A program made the position numbers and the translations under genes. DNA of 64,000 nucleotides. It comes from a virus. Lineage: Duplodnaviria > Caudoviricetes. The notes beneath the pieces were generated by a model. That model worked only from the letters and a program-made list of their open reading frames with translations. It did no database searches and was not told where the DNA came from. Positions 7,685-55,460 of this stretch are shown piece after piece. Location: the IMG/VR virus record IMGVR_UViG_3300021375_000006; one strand, written 5' to 3'. Each line of letters begins with the position of its first letter. The stretch's first letter is position 1.

Positions 7685-7738
7685 TTTTCAATATATGTGT
7701 TTGTCTATGTTTTATATATCTGGATGATTTTGCATAAA

Positions 7739-9273: not shown

Positions 9274-9283
9274 TTATATATCT
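9274..9283 (-). promoter_or_regulatory. Class III (late-like) promoter (A/T/G)GATATATAA
   Basis: Copies at 1659, 7712, 9274, 11667, 12066, 13712, 16479 (variant), 17541, 18444, 30521, 48004, 52441, 55463 (variant) on - and 53089 on +; mostly upstream of structural genes. Confidence 0.8.
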
Positions 9284-11644
9284 TTACTTTTTAAATCTTT
9301 TCTTTAAGCCCTCAGCGTAGCTAGACACATCGTAAAGTGGCTTCTTCTCTTCAGCTTTAACTGCTGATTCGTTAATAGAAGCTAACTTTTCTAGGTCAAC
9401 TTTTACCTCTCTTAGATCTCTAGTTTCCCAGAAGTTTCTAACTTGATACTCAGTTTTTAGAGTATGGTATTTTGATTGAGCTTTAATTTGATTTTGTTTA
9501 GACTCAGAAAGAGCTTCGAACTTCTCTTTGTACTCTGCAGGAGCTGCAGTGATAAAGAATGGTTCAGCTGTTTTAGCTTCTACAACTGCTTCAGCAGATT
9601 CAACGATTGCGTTGATTTCGCCTTCAGTCATAAAACCTCTTTTAGCAACTCTTTGTCTAACTTCAGTTTTAGCATCTTCGTTTAGAGCATTATATTTCTC
9701 TTGAGTTGTGCTAGATACAACTTTAAAGAATGATGGATTTTCATTTTCTTTAACTTGTGCAGCTTCAACTAGAGCGTCTAACTTAGATGAAATTTCTTTT
9801 TTGTAAGTATCTAAAGCAGATTCTTCAACTTCTTCAGTTTCTTCAACTTCTTCAGTTTCTTCAACTTCATCTTCTTCAGCTACTTCTTCGTTTTCAGTTT
9901 TGATACCTTCTTCTTCAGCGTATTCTTCAGCATTTTCTTTGTCGTCAGCATCAACACCTTCAACATCATACTCTTCATCGCCTACTTTGAATTTAGATTC
10001 ACCTTTAGCAATAGCTTCTGCTCTTGCAGAACCGAATGCGTTACCTTCTTCGACTTCGTCTTCTTCAGCAACTTCTTCAGCACCTTCGCCAGCTTCGTCT
10101 TCTTCAGCAACTTCGTCTTCAACTACTTCTTCAGCGCCCTCACCTGCTTCATCTTCTTCAGCAACTTCTTCGCTTTCTTCTTCAGTAACTTCGTCTTCAA
10201 CTACTTCTTCAGCACCTTCGCCAGCTTCGTCTTCTTCAGCAACTTCTTCAGTTTCTTCAACTTCTTCAGTTTCTTCAACTTCTTCCTCTTCAGCTACTTC
10301 TTTAGCACCTTCTTCACCGTCTACTAATTCGTCTTCTAATTCATCAGACTCATCTTCAACTTTATCTTCAACTTCAGCGTCAGATTTTACAGTTTCGTCT
10401 TCTAACTCTTCAGCAGGCTCACCAGAATCACCAGATTCTACATCACCTTCTTCTGAATTATCACCAACGTTTTCAATATCGTCTTCAGCTTCTTCTTTTT
10501 CTTGACCAGGCTCTTCAGCTTCGTCTTCTTCTTCGGTTACTAAACTTTCATTGATTTGAGTAGCAATATATTCTGCATACTCAGAAACATTTTGTAAATT
10601 TTCTTTCAAATACTCTACATAAGATAATAAGTTCTCAGAAGTTTCCGTACCTTCATTATGTTGTTCAGCCAAATAGTTAGAAAAATCTTTAACTTTACTA
10701 ACAGCTTCAGCTAAATGCTCAGAGTATTGAATACCTTGATCTAATTTTTCTGCTACATTTTCTGTATATGAAATACCTTGATCGGCTTTTTCAGCTACAT
10801 GCTCTGTATATTGGATTGACTCGTCTAATTTGCCAGCTAAATACTCTACGTATTCTGAGAGAGTATTAACGCGCTCGACGATGTGGTCGTTATGAGACTT
10901 TACGTTCTCTAACGTGTTATCTTCGCTATTCGCTCCGATAGACTCTTTAATGCCTTTAATTTCGTTAGCTAAGTACTCAGAATACTTGTGGAAATCTTCA
11001 GCCTTTACAAATTCTGCCATGTTTTTATTATTATTTGTTTCTATATTGGTTTCTGTAATTTCTTGTGCTACTTCAGGAGCTTCTGCGCCCTCGCCGTTCA
11101 TTTCGTAGATCCATAGACCTGAGTTATCATCAAAGCCATAAGATTCATTTACTCTCTTTAACTCAGCATTAGCGAATCCAGGATCTGCTACTAAGTCATA
11201 AGTAAATAATTGCTTGATTTTAACTTTACCGTTAGATTCAACGGCACCAGCTGCTCTAGAAGAGATTTGTAAAGGTACTCCAGCATCAACAAGAGCTTTA
11301 GCTTGTCTACCAGCATCAGTATCTAAAAGTCTGATTTTACCTTTAACGTGTTTGTTATCTTTGTCGTAATAAAGTTCTTCAATAATGTGTGAAACATTCT
11401 TAAGAGAAACATCAAACTGTTGTGGGTGATCTAATTCACCTAATAGTTTAGAAGATTTAATCTTATCTTGTAATTGCTGAATTTGAGGAATATACTCATC
11501 TTCAGTGTAGATACGATTATTTTTATTCTTGGAGTCAATTTCTCCAAAGATACCTTCTAGAATGTACTCTTTGTTTTCACCTTCAGCTACTTTTAACTGA
11601 GATGAAGACATTTCTACGATCAATAAGTCGTTTTTGTTTGCCAT
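9284..11644 (-). CDS. Prohead core protease (gp21-like) fused to scaffolding/core protein (gp22-like) with acidic repeats
   Basis: N-terminal LEGIF...KNKNNRIY...LLGELDHP...ISSRAAG...YDLVADPGFANA = gp21 protease, followed by helical repeats and an E/D-rich low-complexity tract. Confidence 0.92.
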   Translation of the reverse strand: MANKNDLLIVEMSSSQLKVAEGENKEYILEGIFGEIDSKNKNNRIYTEDEYIPQIQQLQDKIKSSKLLGELDHPQQFDVSLKNVSHIIEELYYDKDNKHVKGKIRLLDTDAGRQAKALVDAGVPLQISSRAAGAVESNGKVKIKQLFTYDLVADPGFANAELKRVNESYGFDDNSGLWIYEMNGEGAEAPEVAQEITETNIETNNNKNMAEFVKAEDFHKYSEYLANEIKGIKESIGANSEDNTLENVKSHNDHIVERVNTLSEYVEYLAGKLDESIQYTEHVAEKADQGISYTENVAEKLDQGIQYSEHLAEAVSKVKDFSNYLAEQHNEGTETSENLLSYVEYLKENLQNVSEYAEYIATQINESLVTEEEDEAEEPGQEKEEAEDDIENVGDNSEEGDVESGDSGEPAEELEDETVKSDAEVEDKVEDESDELEDELVDGEEGAKEVAEEEEVEETEEVEETEEVAEEDEAGEGAEEVVEDEVTEEESEEVAEEDEAGEGAEEVVEDEVAEEDEAGEGAEEVAEEDEVEEGNAFGSARAEAIAKGESKFKVGDEEYDVEGVDADDKENAEEYAEEEGIKTENEEVAEEDEVEETEEVEETEEVEESALDTYKKEISSKLDALVEAAQVKENENPSFFKVVSSTTQEKYNALNEDAKTEVRQRVAKRGFMTEGEINAIVESAEAVVEAKTAEPFFITAAPAEYKEKFEALSESKQNQIKAQSKYHTLKTEYQVRNFWETRDLREVKVDLEKLASINESAVKAEEKKPLYDVSSYAEGLKKRFKK
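9820..10300 (-). repeat. Coding tandem repeats (EEVEET; AEEDEAGEGAEEV)
   Basis: Repeated GAAGAAGTTGAAGAAACT and GCTGGCGAAGGTGCTGAAGAAG units. Confidence 0.9.
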
Positions 11645-11705
11645 ATCTATGGTTTATCTATTTTTATTATATATCTTGTTGTATTATACAAATATCTTAA
11701 TATCT

Positions 11706-12062
11706 TTAGACGCCTGCTAACGGATCTTCTTCTTCTCCGCCACCAGCATCTGCTTCGGCTTCTTTCTCTTCTTCCTTCTCTTGCTCAGCGTCCTCTGCCG
11801 ATTTATCTAAATAATATGCTACTAGAACATCCATCTCACCTTCAGCGAATGCATCTACTCCATACTCTCTATAGAAATACTCTTTAAATTCGCCCTCTGT
11901 TTTAGAAGAAGTAATAACTCCTAATATTTCAGCGGATTTGATTGTAGCACCAGAATCTAATTTTAAGTCTTCGACATAAATTTTAGAGTCTTCACCTGCC
12001 TTCATAGCGTCCTCTGCTATAAAATCTTCAAAGGTTTTAATTATTTTAAAATCGTTTTTCAT
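11706..12062 (-). CDS. Small acidic prohead-associated protein carrying the TFEDFIAE motif
   Basis: Between portal and protease, as T4 gp67/gp68 are. MKNDFKIIKTFEDFIAED; own late promoter. Confidence 0.55.
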   Translation of the reverse strand: MKNDFKIIKTFEDFIAEDAMKAGEDSKIYVEDLKLDSGATIKSAEILGVITSSKTEGEFKEYFYREYGVDAFAEGEMDVLVAYYLDKSAEDAEQEKEEEKEAEADAGGGEEEDPLAGV

Positions 12063-12095
12063 AATTTATATATCTCTTTTTCTGGCGAATCTAGG

Positions 12096-13691: not shown

Positions 13692-13720
13692 AATATAGTA
13701 TTATTTCTGTTTTATATATC

Positions 13721-17537: not shown

Positions 17538-17618
17538 AGATTATATATCAACCTTTACTGGTAACAAAAATGGCCAATATTTCTATTGGCCATTTTTACT
17601 TATTTTGGTTAAGTTCTA

Positions 17619-18416: not shown

Positions 18417-18456
18417 AATTAGTTTTTAATCTTTTTTGTTTTATTATATATCCCTG

Positions 18457-38121: not shown

Positions 38122-38147
38122 AGCCTGACATAAAAAAATATCAGGCT
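38122..38147 (-). terminator. Terminator of the 38-48 kb late operon, overlapping an early promoter
   Basis: AGCCTGA-N12-TCAGGCT followed by a T run on the minus strand. Confidence 0.75.
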
Positions 38148-38172: not shown

Positions 38173-39930
38173 TTATAGTGGCCAAATCATGGATGTGCCT
38201 GCATCATGCCATTCACTATACCACCCTTTTTTATTAAGTTCCTTTTCCCATTTGTTATCTACACCAAACGTTCTGTTCTTGTAGTCTTCAGAATAGTAGT
38301 CATAAATTTCTCTACCTTTATACTCATCGCCATTCTCACCTGAAACCCAGATACCACCTTGAGAACCGTTGAACTCTTCAGTAGTTCTTACAAAGTCCAT
38401 ATACTTTTCGATCCACTTAATCATAGCGTCTCTATCAAGTTTCTTTTCAGTAATAGGTTCTACAGATTCAAATGCAACTTCTTTATCAACTATTTCAAAA
38501 CTAACTGAATTATGAATACTTGTTTTTCTCTTCTTTTCTTTACCTTTACTTATTTCAACAAATGCTTCTTGTCCTCCAACTTCACCAGCAACTCTTTTAT
38601 AGAAATAACCATGCTCTGTTTTGATATATTCACCTACATTTACACTCATTGCCTCAGTAACTACAGATTCTGCAAATGCCTCAATATCCCACTGGATTCT
38701 TTGCATTGGGTCATCGTATGGGAATTCTTTCTCTACCCAGTCAATTAGACCTGGTTCAAACTCAGCGTTTTGAGCCATATCAAAAGCATTCTTCCAGCCA
38801 TCATTAGACGCTACATCCTCTAACCACTGGTCATACTTCTTTTGATTCCATCTCTTCATGGCTTTCTTTCTGTTCTTCTCAGCCTCTTTCTTCATGGCAT
38901 CTAATTTAGCCATGTCTGCTCTTCTAAGCTTATCTTGTCTTAGTCTGATTAGAACAGGATCGTTATAGTCCGTCGCCTCTGTCATCATTTCCTCTTGAGC
39001 GAACTTGTTATACTCTTTTGACCACTTCTTCCATTCAGCTGGAGTAGCATAATCTTCTAATACATCAACTACATCTCTGTTACCTTTTTGTTCAATAACT
39101 TGGTCTGCAATCCATCTACCTGCTTTTGCATTTAAGTAATAAAGTGCGCCTGCATCAGAGAATTTGTAAGATTCAGTTAACCATGCCATTGCAGAATGCC
39201 AGTTATCTTCAATCTCTCTACGTTTAAAACCTGCAAGTTCTAATGTACCCCAGAAACCATAGGCTTCATTTACATCGTCGATTGAGTATTGATTTTTCTT
39301 ACCGAACTTAAATGCTTCATTAACTAAAGATTCGCTAACAAAATTATTAAATTGTGTAAATAGTTTAAATCCTTCCATCTCTAGTTTCTTTTTTGTTTTG
39401 TCTTTTTTAGCCTCCTCTTCGTCATCATCAATATCTGCTACTGAAGGTACATCGCCAGAACCTATACCGCCATCAGAAGGTAGAACCACAGGGCCCATAC
39501 CGCCTATATTAGCACTAGGTGTAATATTTTGTGCTGCATGTGCAAAATCTTCATCCACAGCAACACCTCTCTTTTTTAAGATCTTTTCAATTTCTTGGTA
39601 AGCTCTCTTGTAATCAGATTTAGAGTAGTGCATTCCTTTAGCATAGTTAGCATAACCATCTAATGCTCCGTTATACATTCCTAGTAATTCTTCATCTGAC
39701 ATTTTATCATTGAATACAAATGGTCCAATAAATGCTTCATCTACCGTCTCTGGTAGTTTATCATGTTTTGTAGAAGCGTATTTCTTTAAGTCTTTCTTTG
39801 TCATTCCGTCTGATAATGATTTTACTTTGTCTCTATAAGCTGGGTCGATGTCTGAGATTTCCATATCACCGGATTTAACAGCGTATGCCATTCCCATTAA
39901 TCTTTGTTGTGACTTACTTACAGATGGCAT
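38173..39930 (-). CDS. Multi-module putative internal head polyprotein
   Basis: N-terminal SKSQQRLMGMA...KYASTKH module; modules bounded by TVDE, AVDE, ESLVNE, MMTE, ESVVTE and PITE; internal FTQFNNF motif. Confidence 0.6.
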   Translation of the reverse strand: MPSVSKSQQRLMGMAYAVKSGDMEISDIDPAYRDKVKSLSDGMTKKDLKKYASTKHDKLPETVDEAFIGPFVFNDKMSDEELLGMYNGALDGYANYAKGMHYSKSDYKRAYQEIEKILKKRGVAVDEDFAHAAQNITPSANIGGMGPVVLPSDGGIGSGDVPSVADIDDDEEEAKKDKTKKKLEMEGFKLFTQFNNFVSESLVNEAFKFGKKNQYSIDDVNEAYGFWGTLELAGFKRREIEDNWHSAMAWLTESYKFSDAGALYYLNAKAGRWIADQVIEQKGNRDVVDVLEDYATPAEWKKWSKEYNKFAQEEMMTEATDYNDPVLIRLRQDKLRRADMAKLDAMKKEAEKNRKKAMKRWNQKKYDQWLEDVASNDGWKNAFDMAQNAEFEPGLIDWVEKEFPYDDPMQRIQWDIEAFAESVVTEAMSVNVGEYIKTEHGYFYKRVAGEVGGQEAFVEISKGKEKKRKTSIHNSVSFEIVDKEVAFESVEPITEKKLDRDAMIKWIEKYMDFVRTTEEFNGSQGGIWVSGENGDEYKGREIYDYYSEDYKNRTFGVDNKWEKELNKKGWYSEWHDAGTSMIWPL

Positions 39931-39931
39931 A

Positions 39932-40474
39932 TTATTTTCCGTCTATTTGAATAACTTCGTTATCTCTAATTTCAAGATTGTTGTTACCAACTGATTCATC
40001 ATATTCACCGTAAATAACTTCACTTTTAGATGCTAATGGAGAATTCATCATTCCAGTCTTATCTATTTTTCTAGCGAATTTTTTACCGTTAACATCATCC
40101 ATAAAGCCTACGTTAATTACTACTTCGTATGAAAGATATAATGTGTTGTCCGGGTCTATATCATTTAAACCATTAACCTCATCTATAGCGAATCCATTAA
40201 AAAGATTGGCAGTAACAAATAAGATACCATCCATGCCACCTGCTCCTTTTTCTACTTGATCTAAAATGATCTTCTTAGCTTTATCTTCAAACTTAGCCCA
40301 CTCTTTATTAACTTCTTCTTGAGTTACTACATTAATACCTTCGTATTTTACTGTTTTAATTTCTTGTTTAAACGCTTGCATTACTTTACCTACAAGACCT
40401 TTAGCCGCGTAGATACCAGTCATTCTATATGACTTCTCGTTTAGGAATTGTTCGAATGTTGGAATTGTTTTCAT
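39932..40474 (-). CDS. Putative internal head protein with TFEQFLNE leader
   Basis: MKTIPTFEQFLNEK. Confidence 0.6.
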   Translation of the reverse strand: MKTIPTFEQFLNEKSYRMTGIYAAKGLVGKVMQAFKQEIKTVKYEGINVVTQEEVNKEWAKFEDKAKKIILDQVEKGAGGMDGILFVTANLFNGFAIDEVNGLNDIDPDNTLYLSYEVVINVGFMDDVNGKKFARKIDKTGMMNSPLASKSEVIYGEYDESVGNNNLEIRDNEVIQIDGK

Positions 40475-40491
40475 ATCTTATATTAGTTTTA

Positions 40492-42864
40492 TTACCAAGC
40501 GTAATCGAACTTCTCGATCTTGTTTATTCTTTCTTTAATTTGTTTCGCGTAGTTCTTAGATTCTCTTTCGTAGTAAGATTCTTTTTCGCCATATCTAGCT
40601 TCAGATTCTTCTGCTTGTCTAATGTAATCTACATATCTAGAATAGTCATCTAAAATATTTGACATGTGTTGAGATGCATCTTTTGCTTTTACTTCTTTAC
40701 CTTTTGCGTTTTCACCAATTTTGATTTCTTGGTATCTAGTCTTCTCACCTTTTGCTAAACCATCTGAGATTTGCTTAGCCAGTTTATCGATTGCATCTGC
40801 TACCATTTTATCTAGTGGTAAGCTTGCAGCTTTATTAGCTAAGATCTTGTGGTATCTATTTTGGTTAGCCTCTTTAAAGTCTTTATCAGATTTGAATGCT
40901 GTTGCACCGGCTTTAGCTTCTGCTCTTGCACTTCTTAATTGGTCAGTAGAATACTTTTGTCTAATTAATTCTAGGTTAATAACAATAACTCTATCGGACA
41001 TCTCTGCAATTCTCTTACCGTTGTTAAGACCTGATGCACCCCAACCCCTGTATTTGTGGTTGATACCGATTTGACCCTCAGAACCTTTTTTCTCTTTAGA
41101 CCAAGATCTACCACCTGACCATCTTGACCATTCATTAGCATAGAATTGTCTGTCACCAGACATAGCTGCTAATACAATACCTCCACCAGGAACCATTTTA
41201 TAGTCATTCCATGATCCGTTGTTATGGTCATAGTATGGATTTTCTTTCTCGTTATCTGAGATAAAGAAAAGTACGTGGCTTGAACCGCCGTAGTTTTTAA
41301 ATATCTTTGATACATCGTTGCTAATAATAAAATCTTCATCTTCGATTTTATCAAGAGCTACTTTAGATAGGTTGTAAAAACCTTTAGCTAAATTAGAAAG
41401 ATTTTTCTTACTTTCTTTACCCTCTCTACCGTTCGATAGAACTGTTCTTAATATAGAGGATTTGATTGCTTCGTTAAGAAAGTTAGCTCCAACGAAGTCG
41501 CTAAATGACTCAAACAAGTTTATTTCGTTTTTCATATTTGTATTTTCTTCTAGTTTTTTAGCAGCTAAATCTTTATCTCTTTTGGATACGTTATCTAGGT
41601 AAGAGCCGTCTCCCCAGAATTTAACAACTAATTCAGTTTGAGTAGTTGAATGCATACCTGGTTTGTAAACTGCAATATCTCTTAATTTCTTGTTAGAAGC
41701 AATGGTTTGCTTCATGAAGTCAAGAGCTTGTTTCTCGTTTCTAAACTTTTTCATAGCACTTACACCGTCACTATAGATAACTTCATAGTTTTCAGTAACT
41801 GCAGATTCTTCTAAATATAAGTTTACATATTTACTACCTTTTTCTGAGTAAATTGAAGTAATTTTAAAATCACCTTTAATTGATTTACCAGTATCTTTTT
41901 TATACCAATCTGCATAATAAGCTTTAAAGAATAAGTTTGGTTCTAGTTCTCCAAAGAAGTGTGAAAGTTTACCTAAATAAAATTCAGCTTTAGGATATAC
42001 TTTTAAAATATCTTTTTCTGTTTCAGCATCTAGAACTGCTTTATCAAATTCTTTTACAAATTTAGCTTCAGTAACTTTTGACTCATCCACTCTCTTGATA
42101 GTATCGTGGAACCAATCTTCTGGCTCATCTCTATAATCAGTGTAAACATCAATTTCCCATTCATCACCGAATTGGTCAACGCCAACATAATACCAATCTT
42201 TGCCCTCGTTACCGTGGTCGTCAATAATATCACCTTGGTCAAACTCTACTTCATACTTCTTACCACCATCTTTAAATTCAATATATGGGAATTTATCTTT
42301 AGTAACTTTGATCTTCTCGTTTACTACTGACTCTTCGATATACTCGGCTAAATCTGGATCGTCCCATCCAAGTTCTGGATCTGCTAGTACTTTTTCAAGA
42401 TCCTTTCTCTTACCCTGCATTGTGATAACTGGAGTACCACCGCCTGGACCGTCCATTACTTTATTGATAATCTTAACTTTATTCTTCTTTAAGAATTTTA
42501 AGAAGTCTTTATCATCAGGGTTAATTGCATCCATCTCTACTGTAGCCTCAAATACCTCAGCAGCTTTAGGAGTTTCATCTAGCTCAGCTAGAATTCTACG
42601 TCCCCATTTTGAAAGCTTTACACCATCTTCAGAAACATTAAAGTACTTTCTATTTCTAGAAGCCCATTGATTTGAACTAGTAGATAATTCAGAAAGAATC
42701 TTATTGAATTCTTCTCTTGTTACCACGCCATCTGCAATTGCCTGTAAGACTGCGTTTCTTACGCTAGCAGTTTTACCTACAGTTTGAGCAGGGTGGTTCT
42801 CTGTATATTTTCTTTTGATTTGCAATTTCTTGCCTTCCGATAAAAAGTCTTCGAAGTTTATCAT
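40492..42864 (-). CDS. Multi-module putative internal head polyprotein
   Basis: MINFEDFLSE leader; linkers EVFE, ESVVNE, ESKVTE, ESAVTE; internal MKNEINLFESFSDF...FLNE. Confidence 0.6.
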   Translation of the reverse strand: MINFEDFLSEGKKLQIKRKYTENHPAQTVGKTASVRNAVLQAIADGVVTREEFNKILSELSTSSNQWASRNRKYFNVSEDGVKLSKWGRRILAELDETPKAAEVFEATVEMDAINPDDKDFLKFLKKNKVKIINKVMDGPGGGTPVITMQGKRKDLEKVLADPELGWDDPDLAEYIEESVVNEKIKVTKDKFPYIEFKDGGKKYEVEFDQGDIIDDHGNEGKDWYYVGVDQFGDEWEIDVYTDYRDEPEDWFHDTIKRVDESKVTEAKFVKEFDKAVLDAETEKDILKVYPKAEFYLGKLSHFFGELEPNLFFKAYYADWYKKDTGKSIKGDFKITSIYSEKGSKYVNLYLEESAVTENYEVIYSDGVSAMKKFRNEKQALDFMKQTIASNKKLRDIAVYKPGMHSTTQTELVVKFWGDGSYLDNVSKRDKDLAAKKLEENTNMKNEINLFESFSDFVGANFLNEAIKSSILRTVLSNGREGKESKKNLSNLAKGFYNLSKVALDKIEDEDFIISNDVSKIFKNYGGSSHVLFFISDNEKENPYYDHNNGSWNDYKMVPGGGIVLAAMSGDRQFYANEWSRWSGGRSWSKEKKGSEGQIGINHKYRGWGASGLNNGKRIAEMSDRVIVINLELIRQKYSTDQLRSARAEAKAGATAFKSDKDFKEANQNRYHKILANKAASLPLDKMVADAIDKLAKQISDGLAKGEKTRYQEIKIGENAKGKEVKAKDASQHMSNILDDYSRYVDYIRQAEESEARYGEKESYYERESKNYAKQIKERINKIEKFDYAW

Positions 42865-42866
42865 AA

Positions 42867-43250
42867 TTATGCTTTAATTTTTGCTAGTTTACCCTGTTTC
42901 TCTTCATACTGGAATGAGAACTTAGACTTTGCGAAAAGTGTTCCCATTGAGAATGAGACATAAACTCCGTCTGGTTTTTTCATAGCAGTCTTATATGCTT
43001 CTGCTGCAGCAGCCTCATCGTCAAAAATACCAATGTATTGTTTCTTGCTACCACCATTCTCTAGTCTAATTCTTTGACCATAGAAGTCTACTTCATTGTG
43101 AGCAAATACTAAATACTTTGTATTACCTTTTTCTGGTAGGTTGTCGCTATGCTCTCCAAATGAAGTTCTATCATTGTAGTAGTAAGAACCAAATTGAATA
43201 GACTCATTTACTGAATCTCTGAAGCCTTCGAATGTTTTTATGTTTTTCAT
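42867..43250 (-). CDS. Putative internal head protein with TFEGF leader
   Basis: MKNIKTFEGFRDSVNES. Confidence 0.6.
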   Translation of the reverse strand: MKNIKTFEGFRDSVNESIQFGSYYYNDRTSFGEHSDNLPEKGNTKYLVFAHNEVDFYGQRIRLENGGSKKQYIGIFDDEAAAAEAYKTAMKKPDGVYVSFSMGTLFAKSKFSFQYEEKQGKLAKIKA

Positions 43251-43269
43251 ATTAATATGCTATATTTGT

Positions 43270-45129
43270 TTATATATTCTTTAAAAAATCATCGAAGGTT
43301 AGGAATTCTGGTTGTGCAGATTCTGCAGCAACACCCATCGAGTCTTCTAATTTCATTTTAAGTTCTCCATACATACCATGTATATCCTTAGGAGTTAATT
43401 TCTTAAATAGTCTTTCGTCACCATCAAGCATTGCGTTTCTAACCTGAGTTGCTGAAATATTCTTGCCTGATCTTGGAATTTCAAATAAACCAAAATCGTC
43501 TCTTACACCTAGATCGTCTCTGTATTCTTGTTTATCTGCTTGATAACTATAGACTTTCATTCTATCAGTTCCAGTTCCCCATAATACTGGCTCGTATTGT
43601 GGTCTTAATTCATTAAACATTTTATCAATTGCTGCAGTAGGTAAAATCTTTACATCTTCAATTGGATAAGAAGATTTTAATTTTTGTAACATTGATAGTT
43701 GAGTCTCTTCGTCGTAAGGTCTCTTGAATGCATCTTCTGCTTTCTTAGTTTTAGACTTAATTAAAAAGATAACTACTGGATAACCGTTTTGTTTATAGAT
43801 AGTTTCAATAACTTTAGCGTGTCCTAATGTAAATGGTTGAAATCTACCAACAAACATATTTACAGGCTTCTTACCTTGATCTTTATACTTAACAGTTAAG
43901 CCTTCCATGATTGGACTAACTTGAGCTGAAATTTTTTGGTTTAATAAATATTGTTTAAAATCCATTACGTCTGATTCATTTGCTTTTGCCATTATTAAAC
44001 CCTCAATGGTTTCAACGATCTCGTTGATCTGCTCCATTAAATCTTTATTAATAAGGTCGGTTTCTTTAGTTCTCTTTTTTCTAAAAGAGCCTAATACAAT
44101 CTTAAATAACTCAGATAATATCTTATCTTGTACTAAAGTAAGTGTCTTTTCGTTTTGAATAAACTTATTATTTAATTCAAACATAGGAGATTCAGAAAAG
44201 TCTGCAGAGTCAAATTTAGCACCAATATATTTTGTAGCATTTTTTTCTACATAATTATTAAAAATAGATGACATTAATTCTAAATATCTTCTATCTACCT
44301 TTCCTTCTTTTAATTCTATTGATGAGAAATCAAATTGTACTAAATGTTCTACAACATCTAAAATTGTAATTTGATACATGTCTGATGGTTTTCTTGGATC
44401 CATCGGTTTTTTATTAAACTTCTCTAATTTAAAAGATTGTAATTCTGTTCCGTCATGAAAATTAATAATAAACCCTGCAACATCTTTTGAAAGATCGTTC
44501 ATTAAAGCAGATTGCTTCATATTCTCATTAAAAATACCGAATACTGTTCTTGTAAAGCTAGGCTTCTCAAAGTCTTCAAATGTCTGTTCAAATTCATTAA
44601 CCGACATTGCAAGAATTTGTTTTAATCTATCCTTTTGACCTGAGTCAAGTTGACCTTCAAATAATATAGGTGGTTTTGAAACATTTAGTTTATCCGCCCA
44701 CTTATTAAGTATTTTGGTATCTCTAATTACCTTTCTAACTTTATTAGGATTAGATGGTTGTAAAACTTGTATATGCGTTAAAATTAAATTTGATTCTGGT
44801 AAAACATCATACTCCACATCAATTGTTTTATTATCGCCAAGATATTCAAATCCAAACTTCCAGTCAAATGGCATATCTTCTATAACTTCTTTAGAAACAG
44901 ACTTAAAGTGGCGAATTGCGTTCTCATAGTATCTGACAATTGTACGATCTACTATATCCATTGGTTGCTTAGAACCAGATTTATAGTATGCAAAATCAGT
45001 ACCTTGTCTTCTTGCATGAAAAGATGAACCGTTGATTTTCTCAGTCACAATACATTTGTGGTTAAGTAGTTTATCAACGTCTGCTGTGTTAGCTCCTTCG
45101 AAATATGTTTTTAAATTGTCTAATGCCAT
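43270..45129 (-). CDS. Ligase-fold nucleotidyltransferase-like domain fused to an HxGH-type (cytidylyltransferase-like) domain
   Basis: N-terminal VTEKINGSSF; C-terminal FVGRFQPFTLGH...GTDR...ISATQVRNA. Confidence 0.75.
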   Translation of the reverse strand: MALDNLKTYFEGANTADVDKLLNHKCIVTEKINGSSFHARRQGTDFAYYKSGSKQPMDIVDRTIVRYYENAIRHFKSVSKEVIEDMPFDWKFGFEYLGDNKTIDVEYDVLPESNLILTHIQVLQPSNPNKVRKVIRDTKILNKWADKLNVSKPPILFEGQLDSGQKDRLKQILAMSVNEFEQTFEDFEKPSFTRTVFGIFNENMKQSALMNDLSKDVAGFIINFHDGTELQSFKLEKFNKKPMDPRKPSDMYQITILDVVEHLVQFDFSSIELKEGKVDRRYLELMSSIFNNYVEKNATKYIGAKFDSADFSESPMFELNNKFIQNEKTLTLVQDKILSELFKIVLGSFRKKRTKETDLINKDLMEQINEIVETIEGLIMAKANESDVMDFKQYLLNQKISAQVSPIMEGLTVKYKDQGKKPVNMFVGRFQPFTLGHAKVIETIYKQNGYPVVIFLIKSKTKKAEDAFKRPYDEETQLSMLQKLKSSYPIEDVKILPTAAIDKMFNELRPQYEPVLWGTGTDRMKVYSYQADKQEYRDDLGVRDDFGLFEIPRSGKNISATQVRNAMLDGDERLFKKLTPKDIHGMYGELKMKLEDSMGVAAESAQPEFLTFDDFLKNI

Positions 45130-45137
45130 AATAGTTT

Positions 45138-46409
45138 TTATCTACCGTATTTAATAATACCCATTAACTGGTTAATAGCGGCAAAAGTTCCAGTTAACTT
45201 GAATGTTTTACCATTGTATTTAAAGACTAGGCCTTCTGTTGGAATGATTGACTCAATACCGCCGATACCTTCTAGTCTCTTTAATTCTTTTTCTACTTTC
45301 TCAATTTGTTTTAGATCTCCGTTCTTTTTAACTTTGTCAGCTTCAGTTCTGATTTGCTTATGTAATCTTGCTTTCTCAGCCTCTGGGTTAGCAGCAACAA
45401 AATTAGAAACGTTCTTTAAAACATCTGCACCTAATTCTAAAAATAGGTTCTCGAAAGGTAGAATGTTTTCTTTATACTTCTTATTTCTTTGACCATCAAA
45501 ATCTTTGACAGCTTTTGCTTGTTCTGGAGTAACTGCTTTCTTTAAGTCTCTCATATTTAGAGTCTTCTTGTCTAAGTATGCCCATCTTAATAGAAGTCCT
45601 TCTTTTAATACTGGGTCTAAATCCCCAAAGTTCTCTTCGATTTGGTTTCTCCACCAAGCCTCGTGATACATTTTAACCTCATCTTGATCTGATAGACTAT
45701 AAGTATCTCTTAGTTTATTTATCGCCTTTTCGTAATAGCCGACTCTCTCATCAAAGTTAATATCTTTTCCTAACTTTAAAATTTGAGGGGGAATTATTGT
45801 AAAGGTCTTTTGCACATCAGCTTTTAACTCTCTAAGTGCTTTTACAATCTCACCTGCAATATTCTCTTCACCTATGATATTACCAGCACCATCAGTAACT
45901 TTCATACCGTGGAATTGAATAACATCTCTGTCATAATAGATTACATTAGGATTCTTAGAGTAAATTAGCTCCATGTTGATAAATGAGTTACCATCTTGGA
46001 ATACAGATTGGTCCTTAAGCTTTGGGAGCGCATCTGCTAGATCTTTAGCAGCAAAGATAAATGTTTCTTCAACCAGCTTTGAAGCATGGCCAGTAAACAT
46101 CTTAATGATACCATTTAGGTCGAGTGGATTAGCTAGTTGCCCTTTATTTCTAGCGAACATAGCTTTACCATCTTTTACAGTTGCAAATACATTCTGACCA
46201 TCTGTCTTTTCAGTTGGTGCCTCTTCAAAATCAAGACCTCCTTGTAGTGCAGACTTTACAATTCTCTTGAAATCTGCAAACGTTAATGAGTGGTCATCGA
46301 ATGGGTGCATCATGTGACCAGCGGCACCACCTTCAAATACGAAATTGTCCAAGTTATTGACCTGGACTTTCTCGTTTAAGAATTCTTTAAATGTATATAG
46401 TTTCTTCAT
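45138..46409 (-). CDS. ATP-dependent ligase-fold (RNA ligase-like) nucleotidyltransferase with TFKEFLNE leader
   Basis: EGGAAGHMMHPFD; motif I EKTDG, III NMEL, IIIa IQFH, IV EGLVF, V KTFKL. Confidence 0.7.
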   Translation of the reverse strand: MKKLYTFKEFLNEKVQVNNLDNFVFEGGAAGHMMHPFDDHSLTFADFKRIVKSALQGGLDFEEAPTEKTDGQNVFATVKDGKAMFARNKGQLANPLDLNGIIKMFTGHASKLVEETFIFAAKDLADALPKLKDQSVFQDGNSFINMELIYSKNPNVIYYDRDVIQFHGMKVTDGAGNIIGEENIAGEIVKALRELKADVQKTFTIIPPQILKLGKDINFDERVGYYEKAINKLRDTYSLSDQDEVKMYHEAWWRNQIEENFGDLDPVLKEGLLLRWAYLDKKTLNMRDLKKAVTPEQAKAVKDFDGQRNKKYKENILPFENLFLELGADVLKNVSNFVAANPEAEKARLHKQIRTEADKVKKNGDLKQIEKVEKELKRLEGIGGIESIIPTEGLVFKYNGKTFKLTGTFAAINQLMGIIKYGR

Positions 46410-46428
46410 AAGAAGTTTTAGATTGTTT

Positions 46429-47967
46429 TTATCCTAATGATGATTGTAATGCACCAACTGCTGCACCATAGTCACCGTCGTGTTTAGTTAATAAACCGTC
46501 TACTACTTCTTGAGCTTTTTCTTCATCGAATTCGTCACCGAACGCTTGTTGTAAAACTGAGAATGCATACTCTTTAAAATCTTCGTCTGATTTTACTTCA
46601 GCTTCGTTAGTAGCTTCTTCAGCAACTTCTTCAGTTTCTTCTACTTCTTCAGTTTCTTCTACTTCTTCAGTCTCTTCAACCTCTTCAGTTTCTTCTACTT
46701 CTTCAGTCTCTTCAACCTCTTTAGTTTCTTCTACTTCTTCACCTTCTTCAGTAGCTTCACCTTCTTCGTGGTGTGCTTCTTCAGTAGATTCTGTTTCTTC
46801 TTCAACTTCTTCTCCCTCTTTAATTACAGGATAAGTCTTACCGTTAAACTCAAACTTTTCAGCATCTTCTTCGATTGCTTTAGCTCTTGCGGCTAAAAAA
46901 GCGTTACCTTCATTCATCACAGACTCGTTAGCCCAGATTAATTCAAATGCATCTACAATTTTTTGAGCAGTATCACCATGTCCGAATCCATCTAAGAATA
47001 ATGCCATACCTTCAACGATACCAATACCTGACCATCCAGCTGCATTAGCTAGACCAGAGTAATGTTCGTCTAATAGGTTAATGATTGATTTTTTACCAAC
47101 TGGAACTGACATTCCACCTAAATTATCGATGTCTACCATAATAGTAACAATCTTACCACCTAGTGCTTTACTTACTGGATCTCTATATCTGTGGAAGTTA
47201 GCGTCTGTTAGGGCTTCAGCTAATAAGTATCTACAAACACCTAATAAAAGTGGTCCGTCCATTAATGCAGTATGGTTCGTAAAGAATGATTCTAACCATT
47301 TAGCAACTTTCTTAGCGTCTCTTGCATTACCTTTACTTGGTTTAAATGCTTCATTAATAATTAGTGACTCAAATGCTGGAATTAATTCTTTATCTCCATA
47401 TACATCTGCCATATACCATTTGCCATCTCTTTCATCAAATAGGTAAACGAATTCTGCTCCTGCTCTATCGCTAGCATCAGAAATATAATCGTCGACTTTC
47501 TTAACATCACCTTTTAGTGTTGTTTTATCTCCGTAGAAATTAATCTTACTTGGATCTGCTTCCAAACCTGAGCCACCCCCTTTCTTAAGTAAAAACTTAA
47601 CTGTTCCGGAGTTCATGTAACCCTTCTTAATTGTAGGTAACATGTGGTCTGGATAACCATCGTAGTGCATATACACTGACTCTATTTTTCCTCTTTTAGA
47701 AATAATACCAACTTGTGATCTGGTACCTTCTTCAATGATAGCTAAAGACTCAGATACTTCAGAAGCACCTAGCTTAGCAAAAAATTTGTTTCTATCTTCT
47801 TCGTTTAAATCTTTTACAGATGTAACGCCGAACTCAGATAATAATGTTTCGAATTGGTAAGCTGACTCTGTACGAGCTACTTTTTGTTCTTCTTCTAATT
47901 TCATTTTTGCTGCTTTAGCGGAAGCATTAGCGAAATCTTCAAAAGACTGTAGTTTTAATGAACCCAT
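46429..47967 (-). CDS. Multi-module putative internal head polyprotein with acidic repeats
   Basis: SFEDF leader; modules after AIIEE, ESLIINE, ESVMNE and ATNE; contains a GTRS...VYMHYDGYP module and a GNAF module; late promoter at 48004. Confidence 0.6.
   Translation of the reverse strand: MGSLKLQSFEDFANASAKAAKMKLEEEQKVARTESAYQFETLLSEFGVTSVKDLNEEDRNKFFAKLGASEVSESLAIIEEGTRSQVGIISKRGKIESVYMHYDGYPDHMLPTIKKGYMNSGTVKFLLKKGGGSGLEADPSKINFYGDKTTLKGDVKKVDDYISDASDRAGAEFVYLFDERDGKWYMADVYGDKELIPAFESLIINEAFKPSKGNARDAKKVAKWLESFFTNHTALMDGPLLLGVCRYLLAEALTDANFHRYRDPVSKALGGKIVTIMVDIDNLGGMSVPVGKKSIINLLDEHYSGLANAAGWSGIGIVEGMALFLDGFGHGDTAQKIVDAFELIWANESVMNEGNAFLAARAKAIEEDAEKFEFNGKTYPVIKEGEEVEEETESTEEAHHEEGEATEEGEEVEETKEVEETEEVEETEEVEETEEVEETEEVEETEEVAEEATNEAEVKSDEDFKEYAFSVLQQAFGDEFDEEKAQEVVDGLLTKHDGDYGAAVGALQSSLG
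46610..46810 (-). repeat. Coding tandem repeat (EEVEET)n
   Basis: About six 18-bp units, the same unit type as in the scaffold gene. Confidence 0.9.
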
Positions 47968-48003: not shown

Positions 48004-49512
48004 TTATATATCACCGTCAAAAGTCACATTTTTTACCTCAAACGGGAACTTCTGTTCCTTATAGATCTTTTGACGCGCTTTGGCATGTCGAATGAGATAG
48101 TTATCCCAGTCTGGTGATGATAAGTCATCTACGAAATCAATGATATTTACCTCTGATTTTGTGTGGTGTTTTCTTAACCCTCTACCGATTGATTGTCTAA
48201 TTATGACTTCCGATTTAAACGATTCGGTAAAGAAGATATTATGTATTTTCTTAATCGAGATCCCTGTTGAGAACGTACCATAAGAGGCAACAATGACAAC
48301 CTGCGCGCCTGCTTCCATCTTCTTCTTGTATTCTTCACGGATGTCCTTGTCGGTATTACCATCCACATAATAGATGGGTTTGTCACTATCTTGGCGCAGT
48401 TTCTCATAAATTCTTTTGCCGTGTTCGATTCGGTGGAAAAGAACAAGGCTATTCCCACGTACTCTGGAAATAATGTTGCAAATGAAAGCCAAGCGCCCTG
48501 TTGAATTGATGACATAATTACTTTCAAATCTGAAAACGTCTTTACTTTCATATCTGTTTTGGGACATCTCATAAAAAGCATTCTTTGTGCTTTGAGGTGC
48601 ATAATCCATTTTTATTACTTTCACATTACAACCTGCAATGTGACCTTCATCTTGAAGGAATGCCGCATTGACCTCTGTAATTACAGGGCCTGTATGTGCC
48701 ATTAGGGTTAATCTATCTAACGTCTTTGCTTTTGGAATTGTCCCCGAGAGTCCAAATCGATAGTTTGCAGCAGTACATTTTTGTAGAATTGTTTTAATAG
48801 AGGTAGACTTAGCCTTGTGAGTCTCATCGATAATTACAGCGTCAAACTGTTCAAAATATTCTTTGTCTTTCTTAACAAGAGATTGATACGTACCAATTAC
48901 CATGTTTCTACCCGGTCTAATCTTTTGACCAGAATAGATCTGTTGTACCTTAATATTCGTTGCATTACGCCAGTTATAGTCCATAAAGTCCTCAGAGGCC
49001 TGTACAACTAACGAAACGTTTGGGACGATAAGTAATATCCTTCCAGCCTTGCCCTTCTCTAACATATACGCAATAGCCATATACGTTATCAAGGTTTTAC
49101 CAGCTGATGTGGCTAACTCACTTAGACATCTTCTAAATTTTAGAATATTATATGCCGCTTCAATTTGATAATCTCTTGGGTTTAATTCATGGCCATCAAA
49201 GTAGTCTTCTGCCCATTTTGTAAACTCTTCTTGTTTTACCGAAGGGTCGAATAGTGTGGTTACACCATTCATCTTTAACTCGAACTTATATTGTTTACAC
49301 AGATCCATCACCTCTTTCCAAAGTCCAGATGGAATCCACTTATCATCCTTAATATAGGAGATATAGCCATCCCATAGACCTTTCTTCACAAGAGGATGAA
49401 AGCGCCAGTTTTCAATTCTACGATTAAATGTGATATTGAGTTGTTCTATTTCTAGTTCACTCGCCTCATCAATACGCAGAAACTGCTTATTATCTGTTAA
49501 ACTCAGTTCCAT
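48004..49512 (-). CDS. uvsW: SF2 DNA helicase UvsW
   Basis: PRDYQ, ATSAGKT, IIDETH, GLSGT, TFSTGISI, QSIGRGLR. Confidence 0.95.
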   Translation of the reverse strand: MELSLTDNKQFLRIDEASELEIEQLNITFNRRIENWRFHPLVKKGLWDGYISYIKDDKWIPSGLWKEVMDLCKQYKFELKMNGVTTLFDPSVKQEEFTKWAEDYFDGHELNPRDYQIEAAYNILKFRRCLSELATSAGKTLITYMAIAYMLEKGKAGRILLIVPNVSLVVQASEDFMDYNWRNATNIKVQQIYSGQKIRPGRNMVIGTYQSLVKKDKEYFEQFDAVIIDETHKAKSTSIKTILQKCTAANYRFGLSGTIPKAKTLDRLTLMAHTGPVITEVNAAFLQDEGHIAGCNVKVIKMDYAPQSTKNAFYEMSQNRYESKDVFRFESNYVINSTGRLAFICNIISRVRGNSLVLFHRIEHGKRIYEKLRQDSDKPIYYVDGNTDKDIREEYKKKMEAGAQVVIVASYGTFSTGISIKKIHNIFFTESFKSEVIIRQSIGRGLRKHHTKSEVNIIDFVDDLSSPDWDNYLIRHAKARQKIYKEQKFPFEVKNVTFDGDI

Positions 49513-52411: not shown

Positions 52412-52579
52412 GTCAATTGTACTTTTGTTTATTATACATATTATATATCTGAATTTAGATTTGTTTCTTCATAATATGTTAATAACTTTTTTGCAAAAAA
52501 ATGCAAAATAATTGCAAAAAAGGTTTCACATGTCATATTTTTTTCGTATATTAGTACTGTAATTAAAAACATATAAAAC

Positions 52580-55088: not shown

Positions 55089-55460
55089 TTAGAATCTTTT
55101 ACCCATCGCAGCACCTAGAGCGGCACCGACTAATCTGGAAGTTAATAGATCGTAGAATATACCTTTTTGAATACCTAGTACTTTGGCTAACATCTTACCG
55201 ATAGATTTTCCTAGTGCAAAACCAGTTAAACCACCGATGATAGAACCTAAAAGACCCTCTTCAACTAGATCTTCTTCTAATCTATCTAAATCAAATTCAC
55301 CAGTCTCTTCATTTAAGTATTGTTTCACAAACTCTTCTAGAGCTTGGTCAACTTTTTCCTCTAATTCAGGAGTCCACTCAGACTGTAGGCCTTCTGTTAA
55401 TAGAGCCATATCAGTTTCTGTGAGTTGTTGTTCAACTAAGTAATCATTAAATGTTTTCAT
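55089..55460 (-). CDS. Putative internal virion protein: acidic TFNDY leader region plus C-terminal glycine-zipper helix
   Basis: MKTFNDYLVE...LVEE-GLLGSIIGGLTGFALGKSIGKMLAKVLG...LVGAALGAAMG. Confidence 0.6.
   Translation of the reverse strand: MKTFNDYLVEQQLTETDMALLTEGLQSEWTPELEEKVDQALEEFVKQYLNEETGEFDLDRLEEDLVEEGLLGSIIGGLTGFALGKSIGKMLAKVLGIQKGIFYDLLTSRLVGAALGAAMGKRF

Follow-up and report, generated by a model that had tools for sequence, protein, structure and literature searches.

An uncultured, marine, T4-related phage encodes, in two adjacent genes on the minus strand, an intact RNA-ligase-like protein (P0002) and a two-domain protein (P0001) that joins a degenerate ligase fold to an active-looking HIGH nucleotidyltransferase. 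As judged from motifs, conservation and a structural model, P0002 is a predicted covalent nucleotidyltransferase of a phage-restricted family for which there is no curated model. The most likely reading of the pair, to which we give about an even chance, is that both proteins are made late and delivered by the capsid and that P0002 seals or tags RNA; within this reading we infer timing, packaging, cleavage, injection, substrate and cofactor.

P0002 is a predicted RNA-ligase-like nucleotidyltransferase

The window, a stretch of 64,000 nucleotides from the virus record IMGVR_UViG_3300021375_000006, carries T4-type head genes with their nearest relatives in the 'huge phage' LR756500. An earlier reading made from the letters of this DNA and its translations (the sequence-only reading) had pointed to two open reading frames at 43270-45129 and 45138-46409, and both are confirmed on the minus strand, with 619 aa (P0001) and 423 aa (P0002), respectively. 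The features of P0002 are as follows.

45138..46409, minus strand: P0002, predicted intact 423-aa RNA-ligase-like covalent nucleotidyltransferase (open reading frame, motifs, conservation, model)
46293..46331, minus strand: family-specific motif GGxxGHxxHPFDD, residues 27-39, 5' of motif I (alignment of 42 relatives)
46197..46211, minus strand: motif I EKTDG, residues 67-71, with K68 the predicted nucleotidyl-lysine
45909..45977, minus strand: motif III NMEL (145-148, E147) and motif IIIa IQFH (164-167, F166/H167), from conservation
45243..45764, minus strand: helical insert separating motif IIIa from motif IV, residues ~216-389 (model secondary structure)
45195..45236, minus strand: motif IV EGLVF (392-396, E392) and motif V KTFKL (401-405, K404), from conservation

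The five ligase-superfamily motifs that had been read in P0002 are all in place and invariant or nearly so. Among 42 relatives, down to 35% identity, K68, D70, G71, R87, E147 and K404 are invariant and E67, F166, H167 and E392 are conserved in at least 90%, and the family-specific motif contributes a further set of invariant residues (G27, G28, G31, H32 and H35). In the AF2 model (pLDDT 86.9, pTM 0.83), the nucleotidyltransferase fold is formed by residues ~30-215 together with 390-416, and residues 1-30 are disordered. The lack of an OB domain, also claimed previously, is borne out by this model, where a helical insert of ~170 residues takes the place of the OB/C-terminal domain.

Structure comparison likewise agrees with the ligase nucleotidyltransferase fold that had been proposed for both proteins. 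All 50 of the VIA matches listed for P0002 are ligases or capping enzymes, and the top ones are RNA ligases (NgrRnl, Z 9.1; T4 Rnl1, 8.5; TbREL1, 8.4; Trl1, 8.1). The alignments run over residues 30-416, yet only ~180 residues are aligned, and fold matches of Z 8-10 are moderate and do not by themselves tell an RNA from a DNA substrate. No Pfam, PHROG or NCBIfam model matched P0002, and a PDB sequence search with its single sequence gave no significant match. Pfam RNA_ligase was weakly matched by 4 of the 42 relatives (best E 4.5e-4). The sole match of the PDB search with the P0002 profile, eS6, is spurious, and Pfam DUF6267, which the Atlas assigns to roughly one in four members of neighbouring clusters, was discarded, as hmmscan of the 42 relatives did not return it.

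P0001 joins a degenerate ligase fold to a HIGH nucleotidyltransferase

The features of P0001 are given below.

43270..45129, minus strand: P0001, 619-aa two-domain protein, starting 8 nt past the P0002 stop codon
44398..45129, minus strand: degenerate Rnl2-like ligase-fold domain, residues 1-244 (Foldseek, VIA, alignment)
43915..44397, minus strand: helical region, residues 245-405 (low-confidence model)
43900..43917, minus strand: inter-domain linker SPIME-G, residues 405-410, a predicted prohead-protease site
43435..43857, minus strand: HIGH (HxGH-type) nucleotidyltransferase domain (Pfam CTP_transf_like, PHROG families)
43819-43848, minus strand: HIGH-domain motif GRFQPFTLGH, residues 428-437
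43438-43458, minus strand: HIGH-domain motif ISATQVR, residues 558-564
43273..43299, minus strand: C-terminal TFDDFLKNI, tag-like, without a processing Glu (homologue alignment)

The full-length model of P0001 is poor (pLDDT 52), and residues 1-244 alone are usable. This N-terminal domain matches T4 Rnl2 by Foldseek (E 3.9e-7) and by VIA (Z 10.5, 174 residues aligned, rmsd 4.4). Its motifs are EKING (30-34), DVAGFII (216-222, without Glu) and SFKLEKF (232-238), and these, like the PIME-G linker and the GRFQPFTLGH...SATQVR signature, are present as the sequence-only reading described them. The view that P0001 holds a degenerate second copy is strengthened by its homologues: the motif I lysine, K31, gives way to N or D in four homologues from huge phages and to R in a marine one, the position of the motif IV acid (218) is A or S within the clade, and K234 of motif V may be K, I, L or V. 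The domain has the ligase fold but does not conserve the lysines of motifs I and V or the Glu of motif IV that an active enzyme would keep, and we regard it as a predicted Rnl2-like ligase-fold pseudoenzyme. Pfam RNA_ligase (PF09414) stays below threshold on P0001 (12.5 bits, cut-off 27; E 0.17), the T4 Rnl1 family threshold is not reached either, and a profile search of the PDB with the N-terminal domain found nothing. Because neither BLASTP nor hhalign detects significant similarity between P0001 and P0002, it is only the fold that speaks for their paralogy.

In the linker, P406 and E409 are invariant among 22 homologues and (I/V)xE is followed by G or A. Beyond it, Pfam CTP_transf_like covers residues 425-565 (35.9 bits, cut-off 21; E 1e-8), upholding the HIGH (Rossmann) nucleotidyltransferase proposed earlier, and the PHROG matches are to cytidyltransferase and NMNAT families. 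The TLGH sequence, a Thr variant of HxGH, and ISATQVR are invariant in the clade. The nearest NCBIfam models are those of NMNATs (TIGR01527, PRK01153 and PRK05379), yet they score 28-31 bits against cut-offs of 127-409. Overall, this domain looks like an active NadM/NMNAT-like HIGH nucleotidyltransferase. At the very C-terminus, T611, F612 and F615 are invariant in the 22 homologues.

Relatives couple the ligase-like domain to RNA-processing modules

The P0002-type ligase-like domain defines a family of 1832 clusters at 50% identity that is essentially virus-only, with only 25 loci in 185,579 species genomes, all of them in metagenome bins or uncultured assemblies that are scattered across the taxonomy. 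Among 48 viral contigs whose P0002 homologue is not fused, 45 have a P0001-type gene at most three open reading frames downstream; two of the other three stop at the contig edge, and one holds a truncated copy at the contig end. The pair also occurs in LR756500, a phage of 462 kb. Elsewhere both activities are fused in one chain, with CTP_transf_like found in 48 of 86 N-terminal parts; Mel-JY01, for which our literature search returned no paper, carries such a fusion as well, and in a second lineage the fused gene lies immediately 5' of a conserved block with portal and protease genes among its members. Other fusions join the ligase-like domain to a CCA-adding enzyme (PolyA_pol plus an RNA-binding domain, with or without HD), to an AAA_33/Zeta-type P-loop kinase and, in a single case, to a 2H phosphoesterase. 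AAA_33 kinase and Tpt1 were not found in the 212-kb and 170-kb relatives (estimated to be 76% and 61% complete); both are present in LR756500, and AAA_33 is also present in Mel-JY01.

We also noticed that one fused relative sits on a 7.5-kb contig without informative neighbours. In profile comparisons, a 728-aa protein of cyanophage metaG-MbCM1 was not significantly similar to either P0002 or the N-terminal domain of P0001, and it was set aside; a weak BFVD fold match and motifs read by eye link it to these proteins.

The pair lies in a block with late-type signals

P0002 and P0001 belong to a block of ~10 kb that runs from ~48.0 to 38.1 kb on the minus strand, begins with the open reading frame 46429-47967 and is bounded by two features.

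48004..48012, minus strand: late-promoter-like motif GATATATAA, 37-45 nt upstream of the block's first gene
38122..38147, minus strand: intrinsic-terminator-like hairpin and T-run, with a 10-pair stem containing 4 G-C pairs, ending the block

The GATATATAA copy at 48004..48012 overlaps the stop codon of the UvsW helicase gene and is the sole match between 30.5 and 48 kb. Across the window there are 13 matches, compared to 3.7 +/- 2.0 expected, 12 of the 13 are on the coding strand, and most sit just 5' of structural genes (portal, protease, capsid). The T4 late promoter TATAAATA was rejected as the late promoter here because it has 0 matches. The evidence supports the conclusion that the block behaves as one late unit, with the late timing an extrapolation from these signals, and the late-operon placement of the sequence-only reading gains from both the promoter-like motif common to head genes and the strong terminator after the last gene. 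The window also encodes a gp21-type prohead protease (open reading frame 9284-11644; phrog_207, E 7.6e-37).

A T4-like leader suggests packaging in the head

The N-terminus of P0002 contains a candidate head-loading signal.

46371..46409, minus strand: N-terminal leader of P0002, residues 1-13 (MKKLYTFKEFLNE), similar to the capsid targeting sequence of T4; the protease is predicted to cut after E13

In T4, the capsid targeting sequence is MKTYQEFIAE, with aromatics at the targeting positions (4 and 7) and (L/I)xE at the processing positions (8 and 10) (PMC8442874, PMC9026906), and gp21 cleaves at the motif L/I-x-E (PMC9026906). We defined a strict T4-like pattern, [FYW]xx[FYW][LIVM]xE starting within the first 20 residues, which in P0002 is FKEFLNE (residues 7-13), within the stretch that is disordered in the model. 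Five predicted proteins have the strict pattern versus about one expected, an approximately five-fold N-terminal enrichment, and they cluster in the P0002/P0001 block and the head module. The earlier claim of an FxxF tag on both proteins stood for P0002; the N-terminus of P0001 does not fit the strict pattern, and its C-terminal TFDDFL fits partly, without the Glu. We know of no precedent for a C-terminal aromatic-xx-aromatic motif as a targeting signal.

Cyanophage homologues of the phage nucleotidyltransferase have been found in virions; S-CREM2 gp154, a HIGH nucleotidyltransferase, was detected in purified virions by mass spectrometry (PMC10665884). This protein starts with MKNFSSFLTE, the same kind of leader as that of P0002, and its P-RSM4 homologue begins MKKFNAFLIE. 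Taken together, the T4-CTS-like leader, the gp21-type protease gene, the shared late-promoter-like motif and the virion-detected cyanophage nucleotidyltransferase suggest, by analogy with T4, that P0002 and P0001 are probably packaged in the head and injected with the DNA. Our literature search turned up no report of an RNA ligase packaged in virions.

Proposed function and alternative explanations

We propose that P0002 and P0001 would both be made late and drawn into the prohead core by their aromatic-xx-aromatic motifs, N-terminal in P0002 and C-terminal in P0001, and that the gp21-type prohead protease would trim them at (I/L/V)xE, after E13 in P0002 and after E409 in P0001. Both would then be ejected with the DNA and so could act before any phage gene expression. 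P0002 would form a Lys68-NMP intermediate and seal or tag 5'-phosphate polynucleotide ends, most likely of RNA or tRNA broken by host nucleases, while the HIGH nucleotidyltransferase may supply or transfer a nucleotide in the same process and the dead ligase domain of P0001 may serve as a nucleic-acid-binding or partner module. Among the functions that the sequence-only reading had offered, the repair of RNA or tRNA now has the most support, through the partners to which the ligase-like domain is fused in relatives: HIGH nucleotidyltransferase, kinase, CCA-adding, HD and 2H modules. A ligase for 5'-P/3'-OH ends alone cannot mend cyclic-phosphate/5'-OH breaks, and no end-healing enzyme was found in the P0002/P0001 lineage when its relatives were checked. 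To our knowledge, a HIGH nucleotidyltransferase has no precedent in RNA repair, and a fusion does not prove that its parts act in one pathway, since cargo polyproteins may be built of modules that work separately.

The HIGH domain is central to an alternative that we consider unlikely, in which it genuinely works as an NMN adenylyltransferase and restores NAD+ depleted by host TIR/SIR2-type systems, with the ligase-like proteins either taking part in NAD+/ADP-ribose chemistry or having a separate role. Its nearest subfamilies are archaeal/NadM-type NMNATs (PDB 2qjo, 1f9a; NCBIfam; phrog_3462), the GRFQPF...GH and ISxTxxR signatures are present in P0001, jumbo phages carry NAD+ synthesis sets of NAMPT and a HIGH nucleotidyltransferase (PMC7824862), and the authors of the cyanophage virion study also propose an NMNAT role (PMC10665884). 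Nevertheless, the NMNAT models score only ~30 bits, far under their cut-offs of 127-449, NAMPT/NAPRTase is missing from two large marine relatives and from the complete Mel-JY01 genome and, in LR756500, lies ~220 kb away from the pair, and the regular coupling of the HIGH domain to the ligase-like domain would be left unexplained. That coupling could instead reflect one shared chemistry, not two separate tools, although we hold this to be very improbable. Either the ligase would be charged from NAD+ and its partner would remake NAD+ from the released NMN, with the invariant GGxxGHxxHP motif binding the leaving group by analogy to domain Ia of LigA, or the HIGH enzyme would directly adenylylate 5'-P RNA ends for the ligase. 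In both versions, the phage would inject a cofactor-autonomous RNA-sealing machine able to work in an NAD+- or ATP-depleted, defence-activated cell.

It is also doubtful, though conceivable, that the pair is not cargo at all and that these are ordinary cytoplasmic enzymes whose aromatic-xx-aromatic motif serves otherwise, e.g., in binding a shared partner. The replication genes for gp32, primase and UvsW immediately precede the block, the short motif is loosely defined (15 seen versus 9 expected in its loose form), and the cyanophage authors caution that abundant enzymes may co-purify with virions (PMC10665884). These points are countered by the enrichment and clustering of the strict motif, by the promoter-like motif common to head genes, by the position of the second lineage's gene just upstream of the portal/protease block and by the domain junctions in fused forms, which follow the protease motif. 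A DNA-level function, with P0002 sealing nicks or joining ends of incoming, probably hypermodified phage DNA, is scarcely to be expected. While DNA ligases have the same fold (Z 5-7 by VIA), the NAD-dependent DNA ligase adenylation domain finds a weak match in one P0002 relative (E 0.008) and a gene for a gp2-like DNA end protector lies in the window, RNA ligases consistently rank higher than DNA ligases, P0002 is without an OB or other DNA-clamping domain, and the fusion partners are RNA enzymes (CCA-adding enzyme, 2H phosphoesterase).

Should capsid delivery of an RNA-sealing pair be correct, ocean T4-related phages would deliver nucleic-acid repair or modification enzymes alongside their DNA, and abortive-infection nucleases would be countered before any phage gene expression. 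Counter-defence by virion delivery has so far been documented mainly for inhibitors (IPI) and an ADP-ribosyltransferase (Alt). Given that the ligase-like family is very large, essentially virus-only and without a curated model, it could yield new RNA ligases of unusual architecture, and its recurrent coupling to a HIGH nucleotidyltransferase is testable directly in vitro.

Comparison with known systems

The ATP-dependent RNA ligases (T4 Rnl1/Rnl2, NgrRnl (Rnl5) of Naegleria, TbREL1 and fungal Trl1) have in common with these proteins the fold and motifs I, III, IIIa, IV and V (Z 8-9 for P0002; Z 10.5 to Rnl2 for the P0001 N-terminal domain), as well as the phage setting and the company of RNA-repair domains. 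Unlike them, P0002 has its ~170-residue insert between motifs IIIa and IV in place of an N-/C-terminal accessory domain and an extra invariant GGxxGHxxHP motif, and matches no curated model, and the P0001 domain is without the catalytic Glu and Lys residues. The NadM/archaeal NMNATs and phage 'cytidyltransferases' (PHROG 3041, 395, 3462) share the HIGH and ISxTxxR motifs and CTP_transf_like with P0001, which differs in that the first His of HxGH is Thr, that it falls far under the NMNAT equivalog cut-offs and that its domain is fused to a dead ligase fold, with no NAMPT partner found in the lineage.

What these proteins have in common with T4 IPI-IPIII and Alt is a leader of the form aromatic-xx-aromatic-(L/I)-x-E at the N-terminus, a gene for a gp21-type protease and the idea of enzyme delivery alongside DNA. 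In contrast to these T4 proteins, the P0002 leader begins 3 residues later, the putative cargo consists of nucleic-acid enzymes of 400-600 aa, and the P0001 motif is at the C-terminus; T4 Alt is itself an enzyme and is processed at both ends (PMC9026906).

T4 Pnkp and Rnl1 repair tRNA to counter the PrrC anticodon nuclease, and Trl1 is a tripartite ligase-kinase-CPDase. Unlike these systems, the P0002/P0001 pair has no recognisable healing enzyme, and its delivery in the virion would be new; in relatives, the ligase-like domain is likewise joined to kinase, 2H, HD and CCA-adding modules.

Organization and phage affinity of the P0002/P0001 gene pair

The pair formed by P0002 and P0001 combines an RNA-ligase superfamily enzyme, a HIGH nucleotidyltransferase and putative T4-style head cargo, all of known kinds; what is new here is the architecture of the ligase superfamily enzyme. 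Both ORFs claimed by the sequence-only reading are real and have the coordinates it gave, and every motif quoted for them was found in place, confirming its observation, while its interpretation is partly supported.

45138-46409, minus strand: P0002, 423 aa, upstream member of the pair
43270-45129, minus strand: P0001, 619 aa, starting 8 nt past the P0002 stop codon

The window is AT-rich (G+C about 34%), with nearly all genes on the minus strand. T4-type replication genes (gp32-like SSB, primase and UvsW helicase) lie just upstream of the pair, and the T4-type head genes include portal, a maturation protease of the type of gp21 (the T4 prohead protease) carrying a long fused extension, major head protein and a gp2-like end protector. 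The nearest relative of the capsid protein is that of the 462-kb 'huge phage' LR756500 (48% identity), followed by other 630-735-kb phages, Sphingomonas phage PAU and, distantly, T4-like cyanophages. No tRNA genes were found within the window. The nearest genome-bin copy (84% identity; L090, L097) was binned as Flavobacteriaceae (metagenome bin SAT1509), and gene starts throughout the window have an A-rich context without Shine-Dalgarno sequences, together giving a weak hint of a Bacteroidota host.

P0002 is an RNA-ligase-like enzyme of a distinct family

P0002 matched no Pfam, PHROG or NCBIfam model. Its family is very large, comprising 1832 clusters at 50% identity, with 1384 matches among the candidates scored, and is essentially viral; a survey of 185,579 species, each represented by one genome, yielded only 25 loci, every one from a metagenome bin or an uncultured assembly, with the taxonomy scattered. 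Neighbours in AFDB/BFVD are unnamed or 'cytidyltransferase-like', the latter because of the fused domain. In an alignment of 42 members (lowest identity 35%), six positions (K68, D70, G71, R87, E147, K404) are invariant and four more (E67, F166, H167, E392) are conserved in at least 90%; together they make up the covalent nucleotidyltransferase motifs I, Ia-like, III, IIIa, IV and V. An extra invariant motif, GGxxGHxxHP, lies ~30 residues before motif I in the same alignment.

The AF2 model of P0002 is confident (pLDDT 86.9, pTM 0.83), with residues 1-30 disordered. RNA ligases top the Foldseek list against the PDB, weakly (best E 1.5e-3), and lead the VIA-align matches as well.

VIA-align matches of the P0002 model to RNA ligases
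Naegleria RNA ligase (NgrRnl, Rnl5): Z 9.1, 181 residues, rmsd 3.9 A
T4 Rnl1: Z 8.5, 169 residues, rmsd 3.7 A
TbREL1: Z 8.4, 185 residues, rmsd 3.8 A
Trl1: Z 8.1, 204 residues, rmsd 5.0 A

DNA ligases (Z 5-7) and capping enzymes (about 5) rank below these, and all 50 of the 50 matches listed are superfamily members. Failure to match the ligase nucleotidyltransferase fold had been set beforehand as counting against the reading; the model matches ligases with Z up to 9.1. The structurally aligned residues are 30-215 and 390-416, with a helical insert between 215 and 390, and the model shows no OB domain, in agreement with the sequence-only reading. Pfam RNA_ligase was matched weakly by 4 of 42 relatives. 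From the conservation of the catalytic motifs and the RNA-ligase fold matches, we take P0002 for an intact, RNA-ligase-like member of a distinct enzyme family.

P0001 joins a putative pseudo-ligase to a HIGH nucleotidyltransferase

The full-length model of P0001 is poor (pLDDT 52). Residues 1-244 matched T4 Rnl2 (Foldseek E 3.9e-7; VIA Z 10.5 over 174 aligned residues, rmsd 4.4), and all VIA matches listed for this region are ligases or capping enzymes. Within the P0001 clade, Ala or Ser replaces the motif IV acid, and K, I, L or V occupies the motif V lysine position; four homologues, from phages of 462-735 kb, have Asn or Asp in place of the motif I lysine, and three of these keep a motif IV Glu, the LR756500 homologue being the exception. 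Because none of the homologues compared has the full catalytic set, the N-domain is read as a pseudo-ligase. The description of this copy as 'degenerate' was right and, if anything, too mild.

Residues 425-565 form the C-terminal domain, a HIGH nucleotidyltransferase that matches Pfam CTP_transf_like above cut-off as well as PHROG families of cytidyltransferases and NMNATs. It retains both signature motifs intact, with the first His replaced by Thr. The nearest PDB/NCBIfam families are NadM or archaeal NMNATs, but the NMNAT scores, about 30 bits, fall short of cut-offs that start at 127.

Ligase-like and nucleotidyltransferase genes are coupled

A P0001-type gene lies at most three ORFs downstream of a stand-alone P0002 homologue in 45 of 48 viral contigs; two of the others stop at the contig edge and one has a truncated copy at the contig end. 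Throughout this comparison gene order is constant (gp32, primase, UvsW, one variable ORF, P0002, P0001), and LR756500 also carries the pair (33-47% identity). In the wider family, the ligase-like domain is mostly the C-terminal module of 600-1900-aa chains, which typically begin with a short leader followed directly by a GRFQPFHxGH nucleotidyltransferase (CTP_transf_like in 48/86 N-terminal parts). Microcystis phage Mel-JY01 encodes a simple fusion of the two, annotated solely as 'cytidylyltransferase like protein'. The conserved pairing and the fusions elsewhere thus show a robust coupling of the two activities that does not depend on gene order.

Some relatives (L046, L047, L050, L043) have the degenerate ligase domain within a 936-1114-aa chain; in the first three the nucleotidyltransferase is shifted to the next ORF and fused to a different cargo module, which places the recombination joints at domain boundaries. 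Fused relatives (P0255, P0257, P0282, P0289, P0296 and others) repeatedly carry two small modules immediately ahead of the ligase-like domain: an HNH-like stretch, ...YKNLEILPHSINESKG..., and a GKFKNKKVVVK-IGKD--G-PTINGK... stretch. A 728-aa protein of Synechococcus phage metaG-MbCM1 (L088:2858-5044) is annotated 'NrdB ribonucleotide reductase A subunit', which looks wrong: its N-domain has HLEHPED and VKWDG motifs, resembles a ligase when read by eye and has a weak fold match in BFVD, and is followed by an internal leader-like MKKFSAFLSE motif and a GRFNPPTIGH nucleotidyltransferase.

Fused modules hint at RNA repair

Modules fused to the ligase-like domain, with counts among 86 N-terminal parts
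CCA-adding enzyme (PolyA_pol and RNA-binding domain, with or without HD): 4/86
AAA_33/Zeta-type P-loop kinase: 4/86
HD: 2/86
2H phosphoesterase: 1/86
Pol-beta palm domain
DNA-binding or unknown modules (ROS_MUCR, DUF5661)

Kinase, 2H, HD and CCA-adding enzymes are the usual companions of RNA ligases in RNA repair, as in T4 Pnkp with Rnl1 and in Trl1 (jumbo-phage review, PMC7824862), and because such modules are fused here, RNA or tRNA end repair is the favoured role for the family. This part of the sequence-only interpretation thus gains from the fused companions, but neither AAA_33 kinase nor Tpt1 was found in the 212-kb and 170-kb relatives (estimated 76% and 61% complete), two points against a complete repair pathway in this lineage; LR756500 has both and Mel-JY01 has the kinase. 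The alternative is an NAD+-centred role; the NAMPT partner was not found in Mel-JY01 (a complete genome) or in the marine relatives.

Predicted late-gene context and leaders point to probable packaging in the virion

GATATATAW (GATATATAA) is over-represented in the window (13 found against 3.7 expected, 12 of 13 on the coding strand), with copies at, e.g., 1659-1667, 7712-7720, 9274-9282, 11667-11675, 12066-12074, 13712-13720, 17541-17549, 18444-18452, 48004-48012 and 52441-52449. Most lie just upstream of structural genes, among them portal, protease, capsid and tail-region genes. Its strand bias and position before structural genes make it a candidate late promoter. The single copy at 48004-48012 precedes the first gene of the block containing the pair, no copy lies inside, and a strong terminator closes the block at 38147-38122. 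The T4 late promoter TATAAATA was rejected as a candidate (0 found against 11 expected).

In T4, capsid targeting relies on a 10-residue leader, MKTYQEFIAE, the capsid targeting sequence (CTS; PMC8442874), in which targeting depends on residues 4 and 7 and processing on 8 and 10; gp21 cleavage follows L/I-x-E, and both ends of Alt are trimmed (PMC9026906). The P0002 N-terminus, MKKLYTFKEFLNE, shares with the CTS an aromatic-xx-aromatic-L-x-E layout. Strict CTS-like patterns start five window proteins against about one expected, three of them in 39932-46409 and one in a small gene between portal and protease; looser versions start ORFs 42867-43250, 46429-47967 and 5756-7684. The P0001 linker, SPIME followed by G, fits (I/V)xE, and its P406 and E409 do not vary; in fused relatives, ...(I/V)(N/T/K)E(S/G)... 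is the typical sequence leading into the ligase-like domain. In a second lineage the fused gene is directly upstream of a conserved block that includes portal and protease genes; in Mel-JY01 the large terminase gene follows about 2.6 kb downstream of it. Purified S-CREM2 virions contained the 'cytidylyltransferase' gp154, and the authors of that study remark that such proteins are often detected in cyanophage virions, adding a co-purification caveat (PMC10665884). This protein starts MKNFSSFLTE, followed by a GRYNPPHKGH domain, and its P-RSM4 homologue starts MKKFNAFLIE; gp154 has weak sequence similarity to the P0001 domain (E 0.03). The leaders, predicted protease sites, shared late-promoter-like motif, gene context and gp154 analogy thus give us good grounds to infer that P0002 and P0001 are probably packaged in the virion.

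The block neighbours in 38173-47967 are ORFs of 512, 127, 790, 180 and 585 aa, most of which begin with a CTS-like leader; none belongs to a known family except for a DUF3008 N-terminus in 38173-39930, and related contigs show their homologues reshuffled among the ORFs. Perfect CTS-like leaders also start the small proteins 11706-12062 (FEDFIAE), encoded between portal and protease, and 55089-55460 (FNDYLVE). In T4, prohead core genes 67 and 68 occupy the spot between portal and protease. ORF 9284-11644 (786 aa) has the prohead protease (phrog_207) as its N-terminal part and, in its long C-terminal extension, two internal CTS-like motifs, FSNYLAE near residue 321 and YVEYLKE near residue 342; it may be a protease-scaffold fusion.
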